From a virus, in IMG/VR virus record IMGVR_UViG_3300045988_129927: a stretch of DNA of 64,000 nt; one strand, written 5' to 3'. Positions 4,367-56,900 of the stretch are shown here, piece after piece (position 1 is the stretch's first letter; every line of letters starts with the position of its first letter). The notes beneath the pieces were generated by a model. The model was not told the origin of the DNA and ran no database searches. It was given only the letters and a program-made list of their open reading frames with translations. The position numbers were made by a program, and so were the translations under genes.

Positions 4367-5230
4367 TTAACAGTAATCGTTTTTAATACAAGCTAATAGT
4401 CTCATTCTTAACTGATGGTCTTTAATATCAGAAATATTGTGTCTAATCTTATCCGTAGTAGTAATACTAGACCAATGATAGTCTTTAGCCATTCTGATAA
4501 TTTCTTTTTTAAACTTAGGTACTTTGGTTCTAAATAATGTACCGTCACCTAATAAAGTTAATAAGTCTAACCTAAATGGTAACTCAGGTAAATCTTTACC
4601 ATTGTAATATTTCGTATACCATAACTCTCTACCTTTGGCTTTACCTGTGTGGGTTTCGAGTAAAGTTAAATTCTTAAACTTTCTAAAAGACAATAAATCA
4701 AAAGCATAATGAGTAATCATTAGTGTATTTTGATTTTCTATATCTTCTATAAAATTATCATATATTCGTATTCTATTCGGATTGGTTAACTCTTTTGACT
4801 TATTAAACTCTGGTAAAACAATCTTTAAACAGTTTGTCATTCGTTTGGTATAAGTCTGTTGTAGTGAGGTATTATCTAATCTTAATAAAGTTTCATTATT
4901 AAAATTATCTAATTTCACATAGTTAGGACAATAGAATACAGGCTCAATACCATTTGCTTCTTCACTACAGATATCTTTAATTAAATCAATCTCACTAAAC
5001 ATAGCGTCTGCAAATTGAGCATCTGATGTTCTATCAATGTTTTCTCTATGTACTGAACCGTATATATTACGGTAGAGTGTTTTAATGTTTATCCACACTC
5101 TACCATTTCCTACATACAGTGGTTTATCGTGTTTGATAATCTCACTGGTGTTTAACATAGATTCAAATGCAAGTGATGTACCAATAGATAAAGGGAGTTG
5201 TCCTCTTTCTCTTTCATTCACATAGTTCAT
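4367..5230 (-). CDS. hypothetical protein (287 aa), translationally coupled to the upstream phosphoesterase gene
   Basis: ORF starts 2 nt after the stop of 5232..6368; no motif recognised. Confidence 0.75.
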   Translation of the reverse strand: MNYVNERERGQLPLSIGTSLAFESMLNTSEIIKHDKPLYVGNGRVWINIKTLYRNIYGSVHRENIDRTSDAQFADAMFSEIDLIKDICSEEANGIEPVFYCPNYVKLDNFNNETLLRLDNTSLQQTYTKRMTNCLKIVLPEFNKSKELTNPNRIRIYDNFIEDIENQNTLMITHYAFDLLSFRKFKNLTLLETHTGKAKGRELWYTKYYNGKDLPELPFRLDLLTLLGDGTLFRTKVPKFKKEIIRMAKDYHWSSITTTDKIRHNISDIKDHQLRMRLLACIKNDYC

Positions 5231-5231
5231 T

Positions 5232-6368
5232 TCAATCTTCTTTCAGAATTTCATTTAAGTAATTTGGAATGGTTTTAATCACTTGTGGTGAATATCCTTT
5301 TTGTTCAGCTTTTAAGAGAATCAACTCTTCGATATTATCAGGATTAATAACCAATGGAACATAATCATTTTCAATACTAAATACTTCTTCTTGATTAGCA
5401 ATGATAGATTTATCCGTATTGACTTTAATCGACCAATAAATATCAATGTTTTCCATTTTTAAAACCATGAATGTTTTATCTAAAGAAATAGGGTGTCCTT
5501 GTTCACATTCTATCCTGACTCTAGATAGTGGTGACAATGATTCCACATTTCTTTTGATTTTATCAAAGGAATCTTGTAATGAAAGCCCAGTAATATTAAT
5601 GGTCTTATAAATAGTTGCTGTTTTATTCTCAATGAATTTTGCTTTAAATTCACCTGATGGTTGTAGAATAATTTCTATATAGCCCTTGGGCTCTTCTTCA
5701 CCATGTGTTAATCTAGAAAAACTACCTGGGGCAATAATCTTACCCTTAGAGGAATGTTTGTGGATATGACCAATAATAATTGGACCTTTTACGATATTCT
5801 CGTAATCTTCCTCATTGTGTTTGTGGTCTGGAGCTAATTCTGGTAATTGATATTGAAAACAACCATGCATAATTGCAAAGTCTACTTGTTCAATATTGTG
5901 TTGTTTTAATTTCTCTTGTACAATACTGAATGTTTCTTGAGGAGTTGTTCTTGGTCTATCTGGTACAAATAATACATTGACATCGTATTTAGAAATATAC
6001 ACGATATCAATGGTATCTACCAAAATAACTTCAGCATCGATCTTAGCTTCTTTGTTAATATGTAAAAACTTCTGAATCTGTCCTGCATCATGTAGCGGTG
6101 TACCATCTACAATACAAAATACAATATCATGGTCTTTACAATATCGTAACAAGTAATACATAGTGACTTCTGTATCAATAGCGTCTTGATGGTTATTGGG
6201 TAATAACTTATCATACCAGTCGCCATCTAATACCAGAATATCTGTACCTGCTGCATCTTTACCATAGGGGAAACACTCACGTATCTCTTCTGAAATTTTA
6301 ATAGTAGGCGTAGAAGAGTGTCCATTGTGGACATCACCGAATGCTTTAATTTTAAGTGGTCTTAACAT
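5232..6368 (-). CDS. calcineurin-like metallophosphoesterase, Mre11/SbcD-type nuclease candidate
   Basis: Ordered phosphoesterase motifs: GDVHNG (DxH), LDGDWYD (GDxxD), DGTPLHD, AIMHG and IGHIHKH (GHxH). Confidence 0.7.
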   Translation of the reverse strand: MLRPLKIKAFGDVHNGHSSTPTIKISEEIRECFPYGKDAAGTDILVLDGDWYDKLLPNNHQDAIDTEVTMYYLLRYCKDHDIVFCIVDGTPLHDAGQIQKFLHINKEAKIDAEVILVDTIDIVYISKYDVNVLFVPDRPRTTPQETFSIVQEKLKQHNIEQVDFAIMHGCFQYQLPELAPDHKHNEEDYENIVKGPIIIGHIHKHSSKGKIIAPGSFSRLTHGEEEPKGYIEIILQPSGEFKAKFIENKTATIYKTINITGLSLQDSFDKIKRNVESLSPLSRVRIECEQGHPISLDKTFMVLKMENIDIYWSIKVNTDKSIIANQEEVFSIENDYVPLVINPDNIEELILLKAEQKGYSPQVIKTIPNYLNEILKED

Positions 6369-8276: not shown

Positions 8277-9812
8277 TTATGCTACAAATCTAGACATAAA
8301 GTCAGCTTGTGCTTTGGTTGGTTGTTGCTCATCGTGTAGCAATAACGTATTCGCTAAAGCCATTGCTGTTTGTTTAGAAATGGAAGTCACACCGTCTGCT
8401 TCGTAAACATTGATTAAATCACCTACTGAATACTTAGCGTCAAATGGTTCAAATGCTTTTGACATACGTTTATCCAGTACAGCTAAGAAAGTTTCTTGGT
8501 CACCATCAAAGTCACCATTATACCATGCTGCAATTTTACCAGAGGTTGAAGCAGACATATCACGCACATCTGTCTTAACACCTACTACTGGAGGAATACG
8601 TAATCGTACAATCGAACCATGTTTCAACGATGGGTTGCGGTTAATGATAATAGTAATGCCTACATTACCTTCGGAGTCTGTAGATTCACTAATCAACTCT
8701 AACATGATTTCATGTATCTTAGGGTGATAAACCTTTTGATACTTAGTCATGATTTCATTTACTCTAGCTGAAGATAAACCATACTTGTGGTATAGTTTGG
8801 CACGAATTTGTGGAGCAAACATACCCATAAACCCAATCCATGGTAAACGCACTTCTGAATAGTGGTGTGGGCCATTGATGGCAGTTACTACAAAACGACC
8901 TGTAAAGTTAGAACGTGTAGCAATAACGTGTTTACGGATTTCACCTGGTTTAGAACCCAAGAACTTAGGGTTAATTTCCATAGATTGATATTCACTAAAA
9001 TAGCTCAAGAACTTAGAAGCTCTGGCTAATTTGGTTTTAGTAGAAATACCACCACGGACATTATCCTCATTGTCAATACCTACCATTAAACGAATAGCTC
9101 GCAATAGTTTTGGTGTACTTGGGTCAATCCACTTTTTACCATTTGAGTTTTCAATAATGGTAACAGCTTTATTTGGGATTTGAATATATTGCTGCCAAAC
9201 AATATCTCGATTTTCTTTGAAAAGTTTTAGCAATGCTTCACCAGATACTGAAGTCGTATCGGAACTGCGTCTAAATTCTTTTTCTGTTAAAAGTAAATGA
9301 ATATAAGTATCGAAGTTATCGTAAAAGTGCTGATAATCTCGAACATTTAAACCTAATTCATCTAGTCTTTGTAACATCATCGAAATAGATTTGGTGAACT
9401 TTGTTACCTTAGGTTTATACGTAGGGTCAGTTAACCATTGCAACAAATTAAACTTATAGGTCGAACGTTCCAAATACGTTTGTAATTGAAACCACAACAT
9501 TGGATTCATCAATGCAGGAACACCAATTGGCGCACGTACCCACATTTTATTATCTAAGTCGGTAGATACGACCTCTTCTGCGACCGAATCACATTTACTA
9601 CATCGTACACCTTTGTAGATGTTCATTGAAAGTGCACCACATTGACAACTAGGGATATTGTCAAATGCTTCACCTACTTCCAACATCAATAAACTATTTA
9701 CAATCGCTTTGTCACGTATCGTGCGATTAGATAATTCATTGATGACGATTTTAGTGTGATGGGTTCTATTAAATAGCTCATCTGAGCTAATGTATTTTAA
9801 ATGTACACCCAT
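8277..9812 (-). CDS. multisubunit RNA polymerase beta-prime subunit, N-terminal fragment (phiKZ-type split RNAP; probably the non-virion enzyme)
   Basis: CQC...CSKC Zn-finger near the N-terminus; INRNPSLKHGSI (compare bacterial NRAPTLHRLGI); catalytic YNGDFDGDQE (NADFDGDQ motif). The ORF stops about 90 aa after the catalytic loop, as in split jumbo-phage RNAPs. It is adjacent to the chimallin candidate, as gp55 is to gp54 in phiKZ. Confidence 0.85.
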   Translation of the reverse strand: MGVHLKYISSDELFNRTHHTKIVINELSNRTIRDKAIVNSLLMLEVGEAFDNIPSCQCGALSMNIYKGVRCSKCDSVAEEVVSTDLDNKMWVRAPIGVPALMNPMLWFQLQTYLERSTYKFNLLQWLTDPTYKPKVTKFTKSISMMLQRLDELGLNVRDYQHFYDNFDTYIHLLLTEKEFRRSSDTTSVSGEALLKLFKENRDIVWQQYIQIPNKAVTIIENSNGKKWIDPSTPKLLRAIRLMVGIDNEDNVRGGISTKTKLARASKFLSYFSEYQSMEINPKFLGSKPGEIRKHVIATRSNFTGRFVVTAINGPHHYSEVRLPWIGFMGMFAPQIRAKLYHKYGLSSARVNEIMTKYQKVYHPKIHEIMLELISESTDSEGNVGITIIINRNPSLKHGSIVRLRIPPVVGVKTDVRDMSASTSGKIAAWYNGDFDGDQETFLAVLDKRMSKAFEPFDAKYSVGDLINVYEADGVTSISKQTAMALANTLLLHDEQQPTKAQADFMSRFVA

Positions 9813-9967: not shown

Positions 9968-11953
9968 TTAGTAGTTGTTACCACTAGCGTTTACGGCACT
10001 ACTCCAGCGTGCACCAAACAGAGAGCTACGTTGTGTGTTGCTTGAAGTTTGGTTAGACAGGATAGAACGACCCAAAGATTCAATCATTGCTGCGCCAATG
10101 TAGTTTGCAAACATGGTTTGACCGAAGTTAGCCACAGCGTTGCGGTTAATCAGACGTGGGCCTACTTCCAACATACATTGATGTACAGCGCGAGCGTAGA
10201 TGTTTTCAATTTCCAAACGTACACCGTAACCTACGATACGAGCGTGTGGCAACAGAGTACCTACGATTTCTTGTTGAATACCAATGCCTTGTTGTACTTC
10301 CAGTCGCACGTCAGATTGAGCACCTACCAATGCACGAGTGAATTCCAGGTTTTCTTTAATGCCGTTAACGTTATTGTCCAAGAACAAACGGTCAACGTCT
10401 TGCAGAGAACGCAATTCGTTAGTTTGTGCATTGTGGTATTGACCTACCAGGTAACGACGATTTGGCAGAGTAAACACCACACGACCAGTACCACCCAAAG
10501 AAGAGTAAACTTCTTTAAAGCGACCGCCGAACAAGTGGTTAGTTACAGCCAAGATTTTAGCATTTTCAGAATCAGGTTGTACTGCAACATGGTCTTCTTC
10601 AAACGCTGCGTTTACAAAGTCAGCCATCATCCATTCAGTAGGAGTACCCAAACCTACATCGATTGCAAATGATGTAGAATCCAAGAAGTAACGACCAATG
10701 ATGTCCAAGTAATCATTTTCAGATACATTTGGGTCAGTGGCTGGAGTTGGGAATGGGGCGAACTCAGGCAGACGGAACATTTCAGAGGCTTCGTAACCCA
10801 AACCTGCGATTGAATGCTGCCAATCGTTAGGATGTTTCAGTGGGTTCAATGCTTCGTAGATGTACCAGTAGTCTGCAAATGTAGCGCCAATACCTACACC
10901 CAATGCATAGATGATATTACCCAAAGATTGTGCGCGAGTTGGCATCAAGCTGGTAAATACATTTACTGGCAAGAAGATTTGCTCGTCAGTAGATTGAGCC
11001 AATTTCTTACGTGCCCATGGAGAGTCAACGTGAGTAGTGTTGGCTGGGTTTACCATTACTACGTCAGTGTAACCACAGATAGAGAATACTTCTTTAGCTA
11101 CAGAGCCACCTACAAAACCTACATTGTTTTGTTGTACTTGGCGAGCATTTACAACATGTTGCCAATCAGCACGAACTGGGTTACCGTGGAAGTCTTTAAT
11201 CACACCACCAAGCAGCTTGCGTTCTACTTCGAGGGTTTCTTTCTTGTTGTCGTATTCCAACAAGTTAATATCCTCAAGCTTACCTTGTGCTTCGTTAAAT
11301 GCAGCGAATGCTTTCAGGGTACATGCGTTAATTGCATTCAGAAGAGCTGGTTGAATTTCTTTCTTGTCTTCGAAGTTTACGAAGTCAGTGAAGATTGGGC
11401 AACCACCAGCGAATACAACATCATTAGTACCCAAGCAATCACGAGCAGCTTGCAACAAGAATTGTACAATGTTGTCAGCTTCGAAGATTTGAGATGGGAA
11501 TGTATTGATTGTGTACGCACGTTGGCCTGGTGCATTTTGAGTGGTTTCAGTAGTCAGAGTAGAATCTGATGTACAGATTACCAGTGCATAAACGCCATGA
11601 GGGCCTTTCAGTTCTGTGTCACGGGTAGTAACCAAGAGGATGTCCATACCAAGGTCATGGTTGTTTCGGTCGAGTGGGTAGAAACCCAGTTCCAGTCGGT
11701 TAGATTGGGTGCTCTCTTTGATGATGGTTTTCATTTGTTCAACCATCTTCATCAAGCCATCGTTTACGACGGTGAAGGTAGAACCGAACAAACCTTCTTG
11801 AGAAGCGAATGTAAAGCCAGTGCGTTTAGGTTGTTGGCTTTGTGTGTTGTTGCTGGTAGTGTTACCAGAGTTGCTGTTACCGGCGATTTTGCCGATGTCT
11901 TCCATGCTATTAACGGAAGGTTGTTGTGGTTGGCGTTTGTCATTAATTGCCAT
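9968..11953 (-). CDS. chmA: candidate phage-nucleus shell protein (chimallin)
   Basis: 661 aa. Strong codon and G+C bias typical of a very highly expressed gene, producing many antisense shadow ORFs. Low-complexity N- and C-terminal tails (NSNSGNTTSNNTQSQQ... and ...SNQTSSNTQRSS...). Lies immediately upstream and co-directional with the RNAP beta-prime N-fragment, the phiKZ gp54-gp55 arrangement. A large AT-rich promoter region lies upstream. No diagnostic motif, so the call rests on synteny, size and expression bias. Confidence 0.55.
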   Translation of the reverse strand: MAINDKRQPQQPSVNSMEDIGKIAGNSNSGNTTSNNTQSQQPKRTGFTFASQEGLFGSTFTVVNDGLMKMVEQMKTIIKESTQSNRLELGFYPLDRNNHDLGMDILLVTTRDTELKGPHGVYALVICTSDSTLTTETTQNAPGQRAYTINTFPSQIFEADNIVQFLLQAARDCLGTNDVVFAGGCPIFTDFVNFEDKKEIQPALLNAINACTLKAFAAFNEAQGKLEDINLLEYDNKKETLEVERKLLGGVIKDFHGNPVRADWQHVVNARQVQQNNVGFVGGSVAKEVFSICGYTDVVMVNPANTTHVDSPWARKKLAQSTDEQIFLPVNVFTSLMPTRAQSLGNIIYALGVGIGATFADYWYIYEALNPLKHPNDWQHSIAGLGYEASEMFRLPEFAPFPTPATDPNVSENDYLDIIGRYFLDSTSFAIDVGLGTPTEWMMADFVNAAFEEDHVAVQPDSENAKILAVTNHLFGGRFKEVYSSLGGTGRVVFTLPNRRYLVGQYHNAQTNELRSLQDVDRLFLDNNVNGIKENLEFTRALVGAQSDVRLEVQQGIGIQQEIVGTLLPHARIVGYGVRLEIENIYARAVHQCMLEVGPRLINRNAVANFGQTMFANYIGAAMIESLGRSILSNQTSSNTQRSSLFGARWSSAVNASGNNY

Positions 11954-41196: not shown

Positions 41197-42480
41197 ATGT
41201 CTGAAAGTTTTGGATATAAAGAAATTAAGGGTTTTGAGAACTATTTGATTTACGATGATGGTAGTGTTTTTAATAAGAATACTGAAAAAGAATTAACTGG
41301 TGAGAAGATTGTCTTATATAACAACGGTAAGACTAAATGGTTTACTAAATCTGCTTTAATGAAAGAATACTTTCCTACTGTTGACTTAAAAGGATTTAAA
41401 ACTATCCCTGGTTTCTCTGATTACATGGTAAATAGGGAAGGAGTAGTATATAGTAAAGTATATAGAAAAATACTTAATTTAACTAAAGATTGTAATGGGT
41501 ACCATGTTATTTCAGTTTTTAATGATAACAGGGTTAGAAAGACTAAGAAAGTACATCATTTAGTATTAATGGCTTTTAAACCAGATGATTATAAGTTAAT
41601 CACTACTGATTATAAAAATAACCATAATGCTGATGGTAAGATTTATACTACTAATCACATCGATGGTGTAAAAACAAATAATCGTTTAGATAATTTAGAA
41701 GTCATTGAGCATAAAGATAATGTACAACATGCTATGGATACTGGGTTAGTTTCTACTGTTAAACCGGTTAAGATTAAGTTTCATGATACTGGTGATATAA
41801 AACATTACCCGAGTATGATTGCTGCTTCTAGGGCCTTAGGAATGCAGGAAGACGGTGTGTTACAAAGACTAGAGCATCCTAACTATAAGTGGGTTTTATG
41901 GAGTGATGGTACGCAGATTATTCTTGAGAGTGATGGTGAATTTGAAGATATAAGATACATTCCTCGTGAAGGTGGTGGTATGTATCAAAATATTGTCGCC
42001 ATTGACTATAAGAAGAATGCATTTGAAGAGATTATCTATCCTAGTATTAACGAATATTGTAGGGTTAATGGTATTACTCCTTCTACAGTTAAGAAAGCAT
42101 TTGAACATACTGGTCATCCTATTATGCGGAATTTACATAGGATTAAGAAAATGGATGATCCTAATAACTGGGGCTTGCCTGTTAAGTTAGATCCGATATT
42201 TGAATTGGCTACGAGTAGTTACAATAAAGGAAGAATCTATGTATTCTTGAAAGAAGGAAATGTACCTATTATTAAATTACCTAATGAAGACTTTAAAATA
42301 GAAAGTGATAGTAGGTTCTCTAATACGAATATAAATAAGATTAGAGAAAAGTTAAGATGTAGAGATAGATATAATCTAGATGATGGTTATAGTGTAATGT
42401 ATTATGAAGATTTTATTAAAACTGAGGAATATAGAAAATGGAGAGGATTATTTAATCAATTTGAATATCTAGGTGTATAA
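41197..42480 (+). CDS. free-standing HNH homing endonuclease with NUMOD4-like N-terminal repeats
   Basis: GFENYLIYDDGSVFN and GFSDYMVNREGVVYS (NUMOD4-like); HHLVLMAF...NHIDGVKTNNRLDNLEVIEHKDNVQHA (HNH_3-type H-N-N/H core); C-terminal HTH-like INEYCRVNGITPSTVKKAF. Confidence 0.8.
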   Translation: MSESFGYKEIKGFENYLIYDDGSVFNKNTEKELTGEKIVLYNNGKTKWFTKSALMKEYFPTVDLKGFKTIPGFSDYMVNREGVVYSKVYRKILNLTKDCNGYHVISVFNDNRVRKTKKVHHLVLMAFKPDDYKLITTDYKNNHNADGKIYTTNHIDGVKTNNRLDNLEVIEHKDNVQHAMDTGLVSTVKPVKIKFHDTGDIKHYPSMIAASRALGMQEDGVLQRLEHPNYKWVLWSDGTQIILESDGEFEDIRYIPREGGGMYQNIVAIDYKKNAFEEIIYPSINEYCRVNGITPSTVKKAFEHTGHPIMRNLHRIKKMDDPNNWGLPVKLDPIFELATSSYNKGRIYVFLKEGNVPIIKLPNEDFKIESDSRFSNTNINKIREKLRCRDRYNLDDGYSVMYYEDFIKTEEYRKWRGLFNQFEYLGV

Positions 42481-45152: not shown

Positions 45153-46037
45153 ATGACGTCAGAAATGATTAAAGTCACTAAACGAGACGGACGTCTAGAG
45201 AGTTTAGATATTGAGAAAATTCACCGAGTGGTGACGTGGGCTGCCGAAGGATTGGATGTCTCTCCATCTGAAGTAGAATTAAAAGCCCAAATTCAGTTAT
45301 ACAATGGTATTCGTACTGAAGATATCCACGCTACTTTAATTAAGTCAGCTGCAGACTTAATTAGTTTAGAGAATCCTGATTATCAATACATGGCTGCTCG
45401 ATTGGCTGTATTTAATATTCGTAAAATCGCCTATGGTGAATATACACCTCCTAGACTTTATACACATATTCATTCGATGATTGAAAAAGGCATTTACGAT
45501 AAAGAGATTTTAGAGAAATATACTGAAGAAGAAATCGATTTAATTGAATCTTTTGTAGACCATAATCGCGATATGAATTTTGCTTATGCTGGTATTAAGC
45601 AAATGGAAAGTAAATACTTGGTACAAAACCGAGTAACTAAACGAGTATACGAATCTCCACAAGTTGCTTTTATTCTAATTCCTACTTATTTATTTGCAGA
45701 ATATCCTAAAGAAACTCGTTTAGATTATATTAAGAAATTCTATAATGCATTGTCATTGTTTAAGATTTCATTACCTACCCCTATCATGGCAGGCGTACGT
45801 ACTCCTACCAAGCAATTCTCAAGCTGTACCGTCGTTCCATGTGGTGATAGCTTAGATAGCATTAATGCAGCTAATTCTGCTATTGTTAAATATATCTCTC
45901 AACGAGCAGGTATTGGTATCGAAGGTGGTCGTATTCGTGCATTGGGTAGTGAAATTCGTAAAGGTGAAGCTATCCATACTGGTGTTATTCCATTTTGGAA
46001 GATGTTCCAAGCAGCTGTAAAATCATGTTCTCAGGGT
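45153..46037 (+). CDS. nrdA: ribonucleoside-diphosphate reductase alpha subunit, exon 1 (295 codons)
   Basis: Near-colinear with E. coli NrdA from the ATP-cone (VTKRDGRLESLDIEKIHRV) to ...AVKSCSQG. The last 8 codons of the track ORF (KLFCPAL*) are intron read-through. Confidence 0.9.
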
Positions 46038-46395
46038 AAACTATTCTGCCCAGCTCTGTAGAAATATAGAGTTAAAAACATCACTCTTAATTGCTGGGAA
46101 ATCTATACAAAGTATAGACAATCAGCAGCCAATACCTAATTGTATTTATATACATTTAGGGAAGGTTCAACGACTAGTCGAAAGACGTACCACTCAAGTG
46201 AGGTCTCTGTAACGGAGTTTGGGGAAATAGAGTGACTACCGCAGTGGATTAATGTAATCCTCTATGTGGTTTCCTTATATTAGGAATCTTACCAGGTAAT
46301 GCTGGAGAAGAAGATATAGTCTCAACGTCTATGGTAACATAGAGCTGTCTATAATAGACAGGATACGGATTAACGACCCGTATTGAAGATATTTG
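46038..46395 (+). ncRNA. group I self-splicing intron (358 nt, no ORF) in nrdA
   Basis: Interrupts the conserved KSCSQG|GIRGGAATL. The 5' splice site follows a U. GGGU pairs with GCCC 10 nt into the intron (P1 with a U-G pair). The intron ends in G. It shares long sequence blocks with nrdB intron 1. Confidence 0.8.
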
Positions 46396-47787
46396 GGAAT
46401 TCGTGGTGGAGCTGCTACTTTATCTTATCCTATTTGGCATTTGGAAGTTGAGTCGTTATTAGTATTAAAAAATAACCGTGGTGTAGAAGACAACCGTATT
46501 CGTCAGTTAGACTACAGTGTGCAGATTAATAAACTAATGTATCAGCGTTTGATTGAGGATAAAGACATTACATTACTGTCTCCTCATTCTGTAGAAGGTC
46601 TATACGATGCTTACTTTAACGATCAAGAGCTATTTGAGAAATTGTATTTAGAAGCTGAAAATAATCCTCTGATTCCTAAGAAGACTATTAAAGCTACTGA
46701 ATTGTTTACACTGTTGATGTCAGAACGTGCAAACACTGGTCGTATTTACATCATGAACGTAGACCACTCAAACACACATTCTTCATTCATTGAAAAAGAA
46801 GCTACAGTCTATATTAGCAACTTATGTCAAGAAATTACGCTACCTACTAAACCTTTAAATAATATCCTAGATGAAGAAGGTGAGATTGCTTTATGTACAC
46901 TAGGTGCTTTAAACCTAGGTACTGTAGATAAAGATAAGTTAGAAGATATTGAAGAGTCTATGGACTTAATTGTACGTGCTCTTGATTCTGTATTAGATTA
47001 TCAAAACTATCCTGTTAAAGCAGCTCGTAATTCTGTAGATAAATATCGTCCATTAGGTATTGGTGTAATTAACTATGCTTATTACTTAGCTAAAAATGGT
47101 GCTCGTTATAGTAATGCTAGTGGGCATAAGCTAACTCACGAATTGTTTGAAGCTATTCAGTATTATGCTTTAAAATCATCAGTGCAATTAGCTAAAGAAA
47201 AAGGTAAGTGTGGTGCATTTAAAAACACTAAATACTCTAAAGGTATTTTACCAATCGATACTTATAAAAAGTCTATTGACGAATTTGCTTCATTTGACTA
47301 TAAACTAGATTGGGAAAGCCTTCGTAAAGATATTGTAGAGTATGGTTTACGTAATGCTACACTGACTAGTTTAATGCCATCAGAGAGCAGTAGTCAAGTA
47401 AGTAATGCGACTAATGGTATTGATTTACCTCGTGGTCCTATTACTGTTAAGGCTTCTAAAGACGGTATTTTAAAACAAGTCGTTCCGGAATATGAAAAAT
47501 TAGCTTATGATTACGAATACTTGTGGTACGATAGTAATAATATGGGTATGTTGAAACTTGTAGCCATTATGCAAAAGTTTGTAGACCAATCTATTTCTAC
47601 TAATACTCGTTATAATCCAGCTAATTATCCTAATGGTAAAGTACCCATGAAAGAGATGTTAAAAGAGCTATTGCTTGCGTATAAGTATGGTGTTAAGACT
47701 TTGTACTATCACCACACTAACGATGGTTCTGATGACACTCAGGATAGCTTAGATGACGGTTGTGCAGGTGGTGCTTGTAAAATCTAA
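46396..47787 (+). CDS. nrdA: ribonucleoside-diphosphate reductase alpha subunit, exon 2 (463 codons)
   Basis: GIRGGAATLSYPIWHLEVESLLVLKNNRGVE..., SNLCQEITLPT active-site loop, and C-terminal CAGGACKI redox pair. Confidence 0.9.
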   Translation, partial: GIRGGAATLSYPIWHLEVESLLVLKNNRGVEDNRIRQLDYSVQINKLMYQRLIEDKDITLLSPHSVEGLYDAYFNDQELFEKLYLEAENNPLIPKKTIKATELFTLLMSERANTGRIYIMNVDHSNTHSSFIEKEATVYISNLCQEITLPTKPLNNILDEEGEIALCTLGALNLGTVDKDKLEDIEESMDLIVRALDSVLDYQNYPVKAARNSVDKYRPLGIGVINYAYYLAKNGARYSNASGHKLTHELFEAIQYYALKSSVQLAKEKGKCGAFKNTKYSKGILPIDTYKKSIDEFASFDYKLDWESLRKDIVEYGLRNATLTSLMPSESSSQVSNATNGIDLPRGPITVKASKDGILKQVVPEYEKLAYDYEYLWYDSNNMGMLKLVAIMQKFVDQSISTNTRYNPANYPNGKVPMKEMLKELLLAYKYGVKTLYYHHTNDGSDDTQDSLDDGCAGGACKI

Positions 47788-55015: not shown

Positions 55016-55435
55016 TTAAAGTTCCATATCTAAATCACCATCTTGGATTTGAGTGTCCACTTGGCTTACAAGATAGGAAGAGATTTCCACTTCTTGTGGT
55101 GCTACTTGAACATTGTCTGAAGTCAACCAGGCATTAATCCAAGGAATAGGATTACTTTTCACTTCTGGGAAGAGTGGCTCTAATCCTATTGCTTTCATGC
55201 GGTGATTGGTAATATACTCAACATATTGACAAAGAATAGCTTCATTCAAGCCAATCATGCTACCATCTTTAAATAGATACTTAGCCCAATCTTTTTCTTG
55301 TTGAGCTGCTTCTTTAAAGATGTTAATACATTCTTCTCTGGTTTCTTCAGCGATTTCTTTCCACTCTTTGCCTTCAGCACCAGATGCCAACGTATTGATG
55401 ATATGTTGAGTAGTAGTTAGGTGAAGTGCTTCATC
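55016..55435 (-). CDS. nrdB: ribonucleoside-diphosphate reductase beta subunit, exon 3
   Basis: The frame is open upstream of the track start: [25 protein letters not shown]...[31 protein letters not shown]..., colinear with E. coli NrdB from the second ExxH iron-ligand motif to the C-terminus. Confidence 0.9.
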
Positions 55436-55748
55436 CGAAGCTGTCCACTACGGTCGTTAATCGTAGCCGGTGTGCTCAAGACACCCGCCCAATATCACTA
55501 TTGGGGTCAGACTATATCACGATCTATTATTAAAATAGACCCTCTGCGTTTGGCGGACTAAACGATTGTCCACTACTCTACTTTCTCTAATAAATAATTA
55601 GGATTTCGATAGTCGTTAGAGTTTGTCAGTTTAAATAGCATAATTTAAACGTCTTTACTACGGGATTGTCTATAATAAATATAATAGAGTTTCCCCGTTT
55701 AGCAGAGTTATTCGACTACCATCACTGATAGAAGCCGCAATGAAGTTT
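55436..55748 (-). ncRNA. group I self-splicing intron 2 of nrdB (313 nt, no ORF)
   Basis: Starts AAAC after exon ...CCGU. CCGU pairs with GCGG 10 nt downstream (P1). Ends ...TTAACGACCGTAGTGGACAGCTTCG. Shares the GGGGAAA...TAGACAATC and AACGACTATCGAAA blocks with the other two introns. Confidence 0.75.
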
Positions 55749-55816
55749 ACGGGAAATTAATTTAATGATTTTAGCATTACCTTCCATGAGTTTACGTTCG
55801 GCAAAACTAAAGCTAC
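55749..55816 (-). CDS. nrdB: ribonucleoside-diphosphate reductase beta subunit, 68-nt micro-exon 2
   Basis: With the final T of exon 1 it encodes [23 protein letters not shown], exactly the 23 residues (E. coli [23 protein letters not shown]) missing from the two track ORFs. Exon lengths 691+68+420 = 1179 nt stay in frame. Confidence 0.85.
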
Positions 55817-56209
55817 CGTTACATTTAATATGGGTCGTTAGGCCATACAATACCTACTTTGAGATATTCCCTATCTTTCAATAGGATACTAGACTATATC
55901 ACCATCTCCGACATTACTCGGTAAGACTCCCTACTAATTAGTAAGAAGGATACATAGAGGTTTTTCAACCACTGTATCTGCTCTCTATTTGGAACTCACT
56001 TGAGTCCTACGTCTTTCGACTAGTCGTTGAAGTTTCTACTTTTATTATACAAAAGTAGCTTACCTGCTGATTACCCAATCTTATTTATTTTCAAACATTC
56101 ACGCCTGTCGTCACCGACTACGTTGTAGTTAAATAAGCTCTAAGGGATTCCCAGCAATTAAGAGAGTTTTTTATCTTATTATTTCTAATAAGTTGCGCAT
56201 AAATTGTTT
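55817..56209 (-). ncRNA. group I self-splicing intron 1 of nrdB (393 nt, no ORF)
   Basis: Starts AAAC after exon ...UGCGU. UGCGU pairs with GCGCA 11 nt downstream (P1). Ends ...CTAACGACCCATATTAAATGTAACG. Blocks CTCTTAATTGCTGGGAA, TTCAACGACTAGTCGAAAGACGTA, ACTCAAGTGAG and TAACGACCC are shared with the nrdA intron. Confidence 0.8.
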
Positions 56210-56900
56210 ACGCAAAAGATACATAGAAACGAATGGCTTCAAGTACATTCACCACAAACATACAAAGATAAATCTTCTTCATCAGTTCACGTTTGCTAAT
56301 TTCAATACGATGGTAAGATTCCATCAGACCATCTTTTGATTGTTTCTTAATTTCAAAAACACCTTCTCCTAGAAGATTATAATATTGAGAATATTCAATC
56401 AAATCATCGTAGTATTGAGAAATTGCACTTGCGCGTTTCTTAATTTCTTCGTTTACTACAATACTATCAAACTCTTCACTAGGGTCAATCAATACATTAC
56501 GCATGATGTACGTATAAGAGTAAGAATGGATGCCTTCGAAGGCGGTCCAGAATATCGTCCAGTGTTCTAATTCAGGGATAGAAATCAAGGGAAGGAATGC
56601 AATGGATGGACTTCTTCCCTGAATTGCATCCAAAAGTGACTGATAATCCAGATTACGCAAGAAAATATGCTTCTCATGCTCTGGTAAACCTTCAAAATCG
56701 ATACGGTCTTTGGACAAATCTATTTCTTCAGGGCGCCAGAAGAACGACTTTTGCTTTTCTGTTAAATCATTGTATACCTGATACTTAGCTTTATCGTATC
56801 GTTGTAAGTTAATAGATTGACCTAAGAACATTGCTTCTTTAGTAGCATCATTAGGTGTTTGATTAAATACTGAAAATCGTTGTTTTATTTGTTCACTCAT
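56210..56900 (-). CDS. nrdB: ribonucleoside-diphosphate reductase beta subunit, exon 1
   Basis: [14 protein letters not shown]...[11 protein letters not shown]...[10 protein letters not shown]. The TAA that ends the track ORF is the last exon T plus the first two intron nucleotides. Confidence 0.9.

Follow-up and report, generated by a model that had tools for sequence, protein, structure and literature searches.

The stretch of DNA analysed here (64,000 nt of the IMG/VR virus record IMGVR_UViG_3300045988_129927, referred to below as the window) carries on its minus strand nrdB, the gene for the R2 protein of class Ia ribonucleotide reductase (RNR). The list of open reading frames (ORFs) shows this gene as two pieces, 56208..56900 (230 amino acids, aa) and 55016..55390 (124 aa, TTG start), and an initial annotation made from the sequence had noticed that neither of them contains the R2 segment expected between the two. 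ORF list and translation agree on this point: the segment absent from both ORFs is encoded by a micro-exon of 68 nt at 55749..55816, as that annotation had proposed. More specifically, nrdB is laid out on the minus strand as three exons and two intervening sequences. Exon 1 (56210..56900, 691 nt, contained in ORF 56208..56900) runs from Met1 to Ala230 and includes the first base, a T, of a Cys codon. It is followed by intron 1 (55817..56209, 393 nt), which lies at the site of the phage T4 nrdB intron, and by micro-exon 2, which supplies the last two bases of the Cys codon through an Arg codon and corresponds to C214–R236 of E. coli R2. Intron 2 (55436..55748, 313 nt) lies between this Arg and the DEALH iron-ligand motif, and exon 3 (55016..55435, 420 nt including the stop codon) extends from DEALH to the C-terminus (E. 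coli R2 residues 237–370). Both intervening sequences are ORF-less and match the Rfam group I intron model RF00028. The reading we favour, and hold to be very probable, is that nrdB contains two functional group I introns and that their removal yields a normal NrdB.

Joining 56900..56210, 55816..55749 and 55435..55016 (minus strand) gives 691 + 68 + 420 = 1179 nt, that is, 392 codons and a stop, and recomputation upheld the earlier proposal that these codons are colinear with NrdB. The spliced product aligns with E. coli R2 over residues 9 to 388 (E ~1e-161) and matches the Pfam family Ribonuc_red_sm (E 4e-51). Both junctions, and with them the micro-exon, are crossed without a gap, and the one gap in the alignment, of 10 residues, lies far from the junctions. 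Unspliced read-through from exon 1 meets a TAA formed by the last T of the exon and the first AA of the intron, read-through from exon 2 meets a stop after 8 codons, and skipping of the 68-nt exon would shift the frame. An exact-protein look-up with the exon-1 ORF matched no record.

Relatives of the gene were collected by a protein-guided scan of IMG/VR; they are uncultured phage contigs, mostly of 237–258 kb, with NrdB 71–97% identical. Three of them (L121, L122 and L131) have no intron in nrdB, and in these the micro-exon is contiguous with its flanks. In such empty alleles, TTTGCN T|GT and CGT|GATGA are found uninterrupted. These are exactly the proposed exon joins, and the proposed junctions are thereby confirmed, including the placement of intron 2 immediately before DEALH. 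The end of exon 1 (TTTGCGT|) is pinned by the intron-free alleles together with the pairing of the P1 helix described below. All alleles with intron 1 keep TTTGCGT|GT and all alleles with intron 2 keep CCCGT|GATGAAGCACTTCA, and the empty alleles vary at the same synonymous positions (e.g., GCC, GCA, CGC, GAC GAG). This is the pattern expected if the exon bases of intron-bearing alleles must pair with a guide sequence.

A scan of the whole window against Rfam yielded three RF00028 matches at gathering level (50 bits), all spanning model positions 1–253, and even at E ≤ 0.1 the scan of the window gave no match besides these three. Intron 1 is matched at 55869..56219 (-) with 69.6 bits (E 1e-15) and intron 2 at 55488..55758 (-) with 54.2 bits (E 5.5e-11), in line with the group I assignment first made from the letters. 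The other features read at that stage hold as well: the two introns are 393 and 313 nt long, both begin with AAAC directly after an exon U, both have a G at the 3' end, and neither contains an ATG-initiated ORF longer than 22 aa (in intron 1, none of 20 aa or more). Base-by-base checking found in each a P1 helix with a terminal U·G pair over a loop of the predicted size, namely UUGCGU/GCGCAA (6 bp, 11-nt loop) for intron 1 and CCGU/GCGG (4 bp, 10-nt loop) for intron 2. The P10 helix of intron 2 (GAUGAAG/CUUCAUU, 7 bp) adjoins P1 in the guide sequence and holds the exons end to end.

Thirteen copies of intron 2 (85–97% identical) were aligned and folded jointly with RNAalifold, resulting in a consensus structure with P2, P3, P4, P5, P6a, P7.1, P7.2, P8, P9, P9.1 and P9.2. 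Six of the 85 predicted pairs are altered on both sides and still paired; P8 has two of the six, and P2, P5, P7.1 and P9.2 have one apiece. Further pairs, several in number, are altered on one side via G·U, and none is systematically broken. The invariant parts are P3, P4 and the P7/J8-7 core, with the P7-forming segments GAUAUAGUC and ACGACUA. P7 itself is not drawable by RNAalifold, being pseudoknotted with P3, and its 5-bp GACUA/UAGUC pairing was checked by eye on the alignment. In the predicted consensus, one pair of hairpins stands in the interval from P7 to P3' and another pair follows P9. Subgroup IA introns have extra helices at these places, and intron 2 may belong to this subgroup; two of the four extra hairpins (P7.1/P7.2, P9.1/P9.2) carry compensatory changes. 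As a separate observation, the loop of P9.2, the last 3' hairpin, reads UUAACGACC in all three introns of the window (hairpins at 55452..55470 (-), 55833..55851 (-) and, in the nrdA intron described below, 46361..46384 (+)) and resembles their J6/7–P7 strand CUAACGACUA; this loop may engage in a tertiary contact or an alternative pairing.

The structural evidence bears directly on whether nrdB could instead be a gene in pieces, with the spacers left unspliced and separate NrdB polypeptides assembling post-translationally. Such an arrangement has a precedent in phage RNR (Aeromonas phage Aeh1 nrdA, split by mobE; PMC3653736), and mechanical ORFs do lie over each fragment, including a TTG ORF (55722..55850) that passes through the micro-exon. 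However, both spacers are full-length group I ribozymes according to the covariance model, and the preservation of helices by compensatory changes would be pointless for an RNA that is not a ribozyme. The reading frames point the same way. The frame of exon 3 is open, as first proposed, from GAT GAA GCA CTT CAC at 55435; five codons farther upstream it is closed by a TAG, and the first start codon to follow this TAG is the TTG at 55390, 15 codons beyond the iron ligands. If the third fragment were translated separately, it would be without the Glu/His iron ligands, because the first start codon available to it lies past DEALH, and the micro-exon would need to be made as a 42-aa peptide starting within intron 1. 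We therefore give hardly any credence to separate polypeptides and retain the reading of two spliced introns. Among other candidates, an assembly artefact was rejected because five independent IMG/VR contigs share the twin-intron layout, and an intein or a frameshift was rejected because every frame of the spacers contains stops and the spacers fit an RNA model.

Several points weigh against two functional introns. Intron 2 scores only ~4 bits above the RF00028 gathering score, and in a larger search the copies of seven relatives (L125, L128, L133, L134, L137, L140 and L144), 91–97% identical to that of the window, fall below it. The P10 of intron 1 is weak (GUAG/UUAU, 4 bp, two of them G·U). 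The 13 copies of intron 2 are related, so that the compensatory changes counted above are not independent events, and the covariation evidence covers intron 2 only, the five close copies of intron 1 being too few and too similar. Site 2 has no endonuclease tied to it, and actual self-splicing is something we infer from sequence. Regarding the low scores, RF00028 at gathering level also misses the experimentally proven T4 nrdB intron (L201) and the introns of a second type (type B) that occupy site 1 in L135 and L140. Since a proven intron is missed, the absence of an Rfam hit is not evidence for the absence of an intron, and intron counts in phage genomes that are based on Rfam are underestimates.

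Some of these points would also fit a decaying gene, in which one or both introns are inactive and nrdB is a pseudogene in this phage: intron 2 stands near the Rfam threshold, intron 1 has its weak P10, and introns without endonuclease ORFs are the usual end stage of the homing cycle. The coding sequence argues otherwise. Once spliced, it is intact and free of internal stops in the window, L123 and L127, and the comparison of the window with these two relatives gives a proportion of synonymous differences (pS) of 0.23–0.34, a proportion of nonsynonymous differences (pN) of 0.02–0.04 and a pN/pS of ~0.1 (the comparison with L136 was dropped, an indel putting the frames out of register). With an intact spliced sequence and pN well below pS, purifying selection acts on the spliced coding sequence, and on this evidence the interrupted genes are functional genes. 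Decay is also at odds with an invariant catalytic core (P3, P4, P7, J8/7), with peripheral helices that are kept by compensation, with P1/P10 exon bases that are fixed solely in intron-bearing alleles, and with the fact that nrdA is likewise kept. Altogether we regard a pseudogene as very improbable.

If both introns are functional, as we favour, nrdB would be transcribed as a single pre-mRNA in which each ribozyme folds by itself. P1 would form between the internal guide of each intron and the 4–6 nt at the end of the upstream exon, placing a U·G pair where cleavage occurs, and P10 between the guide and the 4–7 nt at the start of the downstream exon. Free guanosine would attack the 5' splice site, and the freed 3'-OH of the exon would then attack after the terminal G of the intron. 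With both introns out, the 691, 68 and 420 nt would be ligated to a 392-codon mRNA for a normal R2 protein, and splicing would reunite the helix of Glu204 with the helix of Glu238/His241 (DEALH). The guides of introns 1 and 2 differ, and the ...CGU end of exon 1 can still form three of the four P1 pairs of the intron 2 guide. IA-type phage introns of similar anatomy self-splice in vitro, and the T4 nrdB intron, at the same site as intron 1, is the textbook case.

A variant of this scheme is that splicing is not autonomous and requires either special conditions or a protein cofactor supplied by the phage or the host, in which case it could act as a regulated checkpoint on RNR expression. The AT-rich composition of the introns (35–36% GC), the short P1 of intron 2 and the weak P10 of intron 1 are compatible with such a dependence, and the splicing of T4 introns in vivo reportedly depends on the state of translation (Sandegren & Sjöberg 2007). 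No sequence feature demands a cofactor, however, the in vitro self-splicing of similar IA-type introns also speaks against one, and we consider the variant unlikely.

In addition to the empty alleles, the relatives provide alleles with one or two introns, so that all four states are represented among 18 related contigs. Site 1 only is occupied in L135; site 2 only in L125, L126, L128–L130, L133, L134, L137, L144 and L146; and both sites in L123, L124, L127, L136 and L140. A pattern scan recovered the intron 2 junction in 15 IMG/VR contigs and the window-type intron 1 junction in 4 of the 15, all belonging to this clade. Copies of intron 1 in L123, L124, L127 and L136 are 95–96% identical to that of the window. 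Where the exons are 70–84% identical to those of the window, intron 2 still reaches 91–97%, for example in L146 (97% for the intron, 72–78% for the exons), and this excess of similarity over the host exons points to lateral spread. Over the 30 nt to each side of site 2, exon identity to the window amounts to 89% and 86% in intron-bearing alleles versus 73% and 77% in empty ones, and it falls with distance from the site (upstream in L144, from 97% to 85% to 75%); the sample is small, its sequences are related, and ~11 of the flank bases are explained by the P1/P10 constraint. This pattern resembles the co-conversion tracts of double-strand-break homing. Within this clade of uncultured phages of ~250 kb, both introns behave like elements that are mobile or were so until recently. 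Because they are ORF-less, their transfer would probably rely on recombination or on the repair of double-strand breaks in co-infected cells, with an endonuclease, if one is needed, supplied in trans; this route, too, we infer. A different kind of insertion is seen in L132, where nrdB (L132:2735..4906) has no introns and forms a single 723-aa ORF with an in-frame intein of ~330 aa, located at ...NLKYQ|C...VTGN|CLLDSVQGR near the Asp84 iron-ligand region.

Site 1, the homing site of I-TevIII, is shared with T4, whose nrdB is annotated in two pieces (NC_000866): exon 1 ends in ...TATCTTTTGCGT, and a 598-nt intron follows that starts with AAAATGCGCC and ends in ...ACATACG before GTACC.... The insertion site is identical, within the Cys codon after FYVSFA, as can be read from T4 TATCTTTTGCGT|AAAA...ACG|GTACC and window TATCTTTTGCGT|AAAC...ACG|GTAGC, and the two introns also agree in their host gene, in the U·G at the 5' splice site and in the terminal G. 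They differ in that the T4 intron has 598 nt and an ORF remnant whereas intron 1 has 393 nt and no ORF, and in that T4 is without a second intron whereas the window has one 68 nt downstream of intron 1. Moreover, the phage of the window is unrelated to T4 and is a distant φKZ-like jumbo phage. The T4 nrdB intron belongs to subgroup IA and carries I-TevIII, which is defective in T4 and intact in RB3.

Within the clade, site 1 holds two types of intron, the window type (393–405 nt, 93–95% identical to one another) and the second type of L135 (371 nt) and L140 (1271 nt), whose 5' end AAATGAATGCGCC is similar to the T4 one. In L140, the intron (L140:4671..5941) contains an ORF (4863..5726, 287 aa) with an HNH motif (Pfam HNH_3) and a Zn-finger, and the C-terminal Zn-finger region is 45% identical to the I-TevIII remnant of T4 (E 5e-19). 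This ORF is apparently an intact I-TevIII homolog far outside the T4 family. The window's intron 1, having no ATG ORF of sufficient length, encodes no I-TevIII-type HNH endonuclease, and its core matches 355 phage-isolate records by blastn, none of them over the full length. Intron 1 thus belongs to a known homing niche, as a member whose endonuclease was lost or never present. Use of the T4 nrdB homing site accordingly extends far beyond the T4 family. On a side note, L128 and L133, which have no intron 1, encode Ala in place of the Cys that hosts site 1 (...TTCGCCG CGAGC...); the Cys is therefore not invariant, and the T4-type target is absent there.

Site 2 falls at R236|D237 of E. coli R2 (counted back from H241), one residue before the iron ligand E238. 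Using tblastn with 50 aa across both sites, the sequence was contiguous in 3492 of 3669 phage records. Interruption at site 2 was not seen in any of the sequenced phage isolates examined, and the partial tblastn matches that were viewed are T4-type splits at site 1, a result that falls short of proving that site 2 goes unused elsewhere. A blastn search with intron 2 against 50,697 phage records returned short core pieces only, with ≤32% coverage. Site 2 is likely, though not proven, to be a new insertion site.

A further and more speculative idea is that the ORF-less intron 2 defines an undescribed R2 homing site and spreads without an endonuclease of its own, for example through breaks made at the I-TevIII site of its neighbour or by a free-standing HNH enzyme; we put it forward tentatively and think it rather doubtful. 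By the first route, the endonuclease of the neighbouring intron would make a break at the I-TevIII site 68 bp away, and intron 2 would be co-converted. Alternatively, cleavage would be done by an enzyme such as the free-standing HNH endonuclease encoded at 41197..42480 (+), in the interval from the tail tube gene to the nrdA region. This product matches PHROG HNH families (best E 5e-29) and reaches 24.3 bits with Pfam HNH_3, just below the cut-off, making it a candidate trans-acting homing enzyme for an intron-free site.

The third RF00028 match of the window lies in nrdA on the plus strand (46028..46344, 84.4 bits, E 5e-20). It marks an ORF-less group I intron of 358 nt (46038..46395) between ...KSCSQG and GIRGGAATL..., which separates exon 1 (45153..46037) from exon 2 (46396..47787). 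P1 (GGGU/GCCC) and P10 (GGAAU/AUUCU) can be formed, and the spliced NrdA of 758 aa is gapless over the junction when aligned with solved class Ia alpha subunits. The intron is optional: it is not present in L202, whose protein is 96% identical, has 349 nt in L206, and in L207 reaches 1117 nt with a 241-aa HNH-type ORF. All three introns of the window share the AAAC start, common core segments and a common 3' extension of ~50 nt. The core of the family formed by intron 1 and the nrdA intron recurs at 120 or more IMG/VR loci.

As to the phage itself, genes for a tail sheath, a terminase and a DNA polymerase are likewise present in the window. A gene for a chimallin-like 'nuclear shell protein' (9968..11953, -; PHROG E 4e-31) adjoins one for a φKZ-type split RNA polymerase beta subunit (8277..9812, -; E 9e-104). 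The chimallin-like protein found no match by tblastn or PDB search, and GC in its region is 0.44, versus ~0.33 for the window. When the nrdB region and 24 kb of the window were compared with the 50,697 phage records by megablast, no relative emerged, only short pieces of RNR genes. The phage is best regarded as a distant φKZ-like jumbo phage that is probably nucleus-forming, the latter on PHROG profile matches only.

Beyond what the initial annotation had described, the analysis added the identity with the T4 site, the third intron in nrdA and the recurrence of the layout across a clade of ~250-kb phages. The practical consequence concerns annotation: an automatic procedure would give two nrdB fragments or a pseudogene, together with a split nrdA, and the phage would then seem to be without a working RNR, although a complete class Ia enzyme is most likely present. 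Among the relatives, moreover, nrdB alleles that have no intron, one or two at sites 68 nt apart form a natural series, which also includes endonuclease-bearing and intein-bearing alleles. This series should be useful for the study of intron gain and loss, of co-conversion, of the spread of ORF-less introns, and of how adjacent ribozymes avoid exon skipping. It also adds introns in RNR genes to a φKZ-like, probably nucleus-forming, phage lineage. If the phage does form a nucleus, all three RNR introns would be spliced in a ribosome-free compartment, and the clade would offer a natural system for the folding and splicing of phage group I introns without coupled translation. The current understanding of group I introns is left unchanged by this find.

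Group I introns in phage RNR genes are classical, RNR being the most often interrupted class of phage genes, with two introns in nrdE of Staphylococcus phage Twort and three plus an intein in nrdE of Brochothrix phage A9 (PMC3653736). Multiple introns are known in other genes as well: the DNA polymerase gene of Pectobacterium phage CB7 has two (PMC7344957), Twort orf142 has three group I introns with a 23-nt internal exon and exon skipping, and in the Coxiella 23S rRNA a 34-nt exon separates two introns (PMC10136302). The presence of two introns 68 nt apart in nrdB, as claimed at the outset, stands, and the accompanying view that this is unusual for one phage gene has to be tempered in the light of Twort orf142, the nrdE genes of Twort and A9, and Coxiella 23S. 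Twort orf142 and nrdE resemble the window in having several group I introns in one phage gene, orf142 in its very short internal exon and nrdE in introns placed within highly conserved RNR codons. The genes differ (orf142 and a class Ib nrdE versus a class Ia nrdB), and the Twort introns that take part in skipping are near-identical to each other whereas the two of the window differ in sequence and guide.

Invasion of both RNR subunit genes by group I introns, sometimes with inteins, is known from Bacillus phage SPβ (bnrdE/bnrdF), A9 (nrdE/nrdF) and CB7 (nrdA/nrdB) (PMC3653736; PMC7344957). The window has introns in nrdA and nrdB in the same manner, and its relative L132 has the nrdB intein; the introns of SPβ, A9 and CB7 mostly carry homing endonuclease genes, whereas all three of the window are ORF-less. 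A further comparison is with the chimallivirus ΦPA3, a nucleus-forming jumbo phage with a group I intron in the RNA polymerase gene gp210 (PMC11620839; PMC12908238). On the side of the window, the resemblance lies in the chimallin-like protein and the split RNA polymerase beta subunit; the ΦPA3 intron contains an active HNH endonuclease that acts in phage–phage competition, whereas the window introns contain none. Set against these systems, what is new here is modest: a second, apparently undescribed insertion site in class Ia nrdB and its pairing with a T4-site intron 68 nt away, together with three ORF-less introns and a rich allele series in a clade of uncultured jumbo phages.

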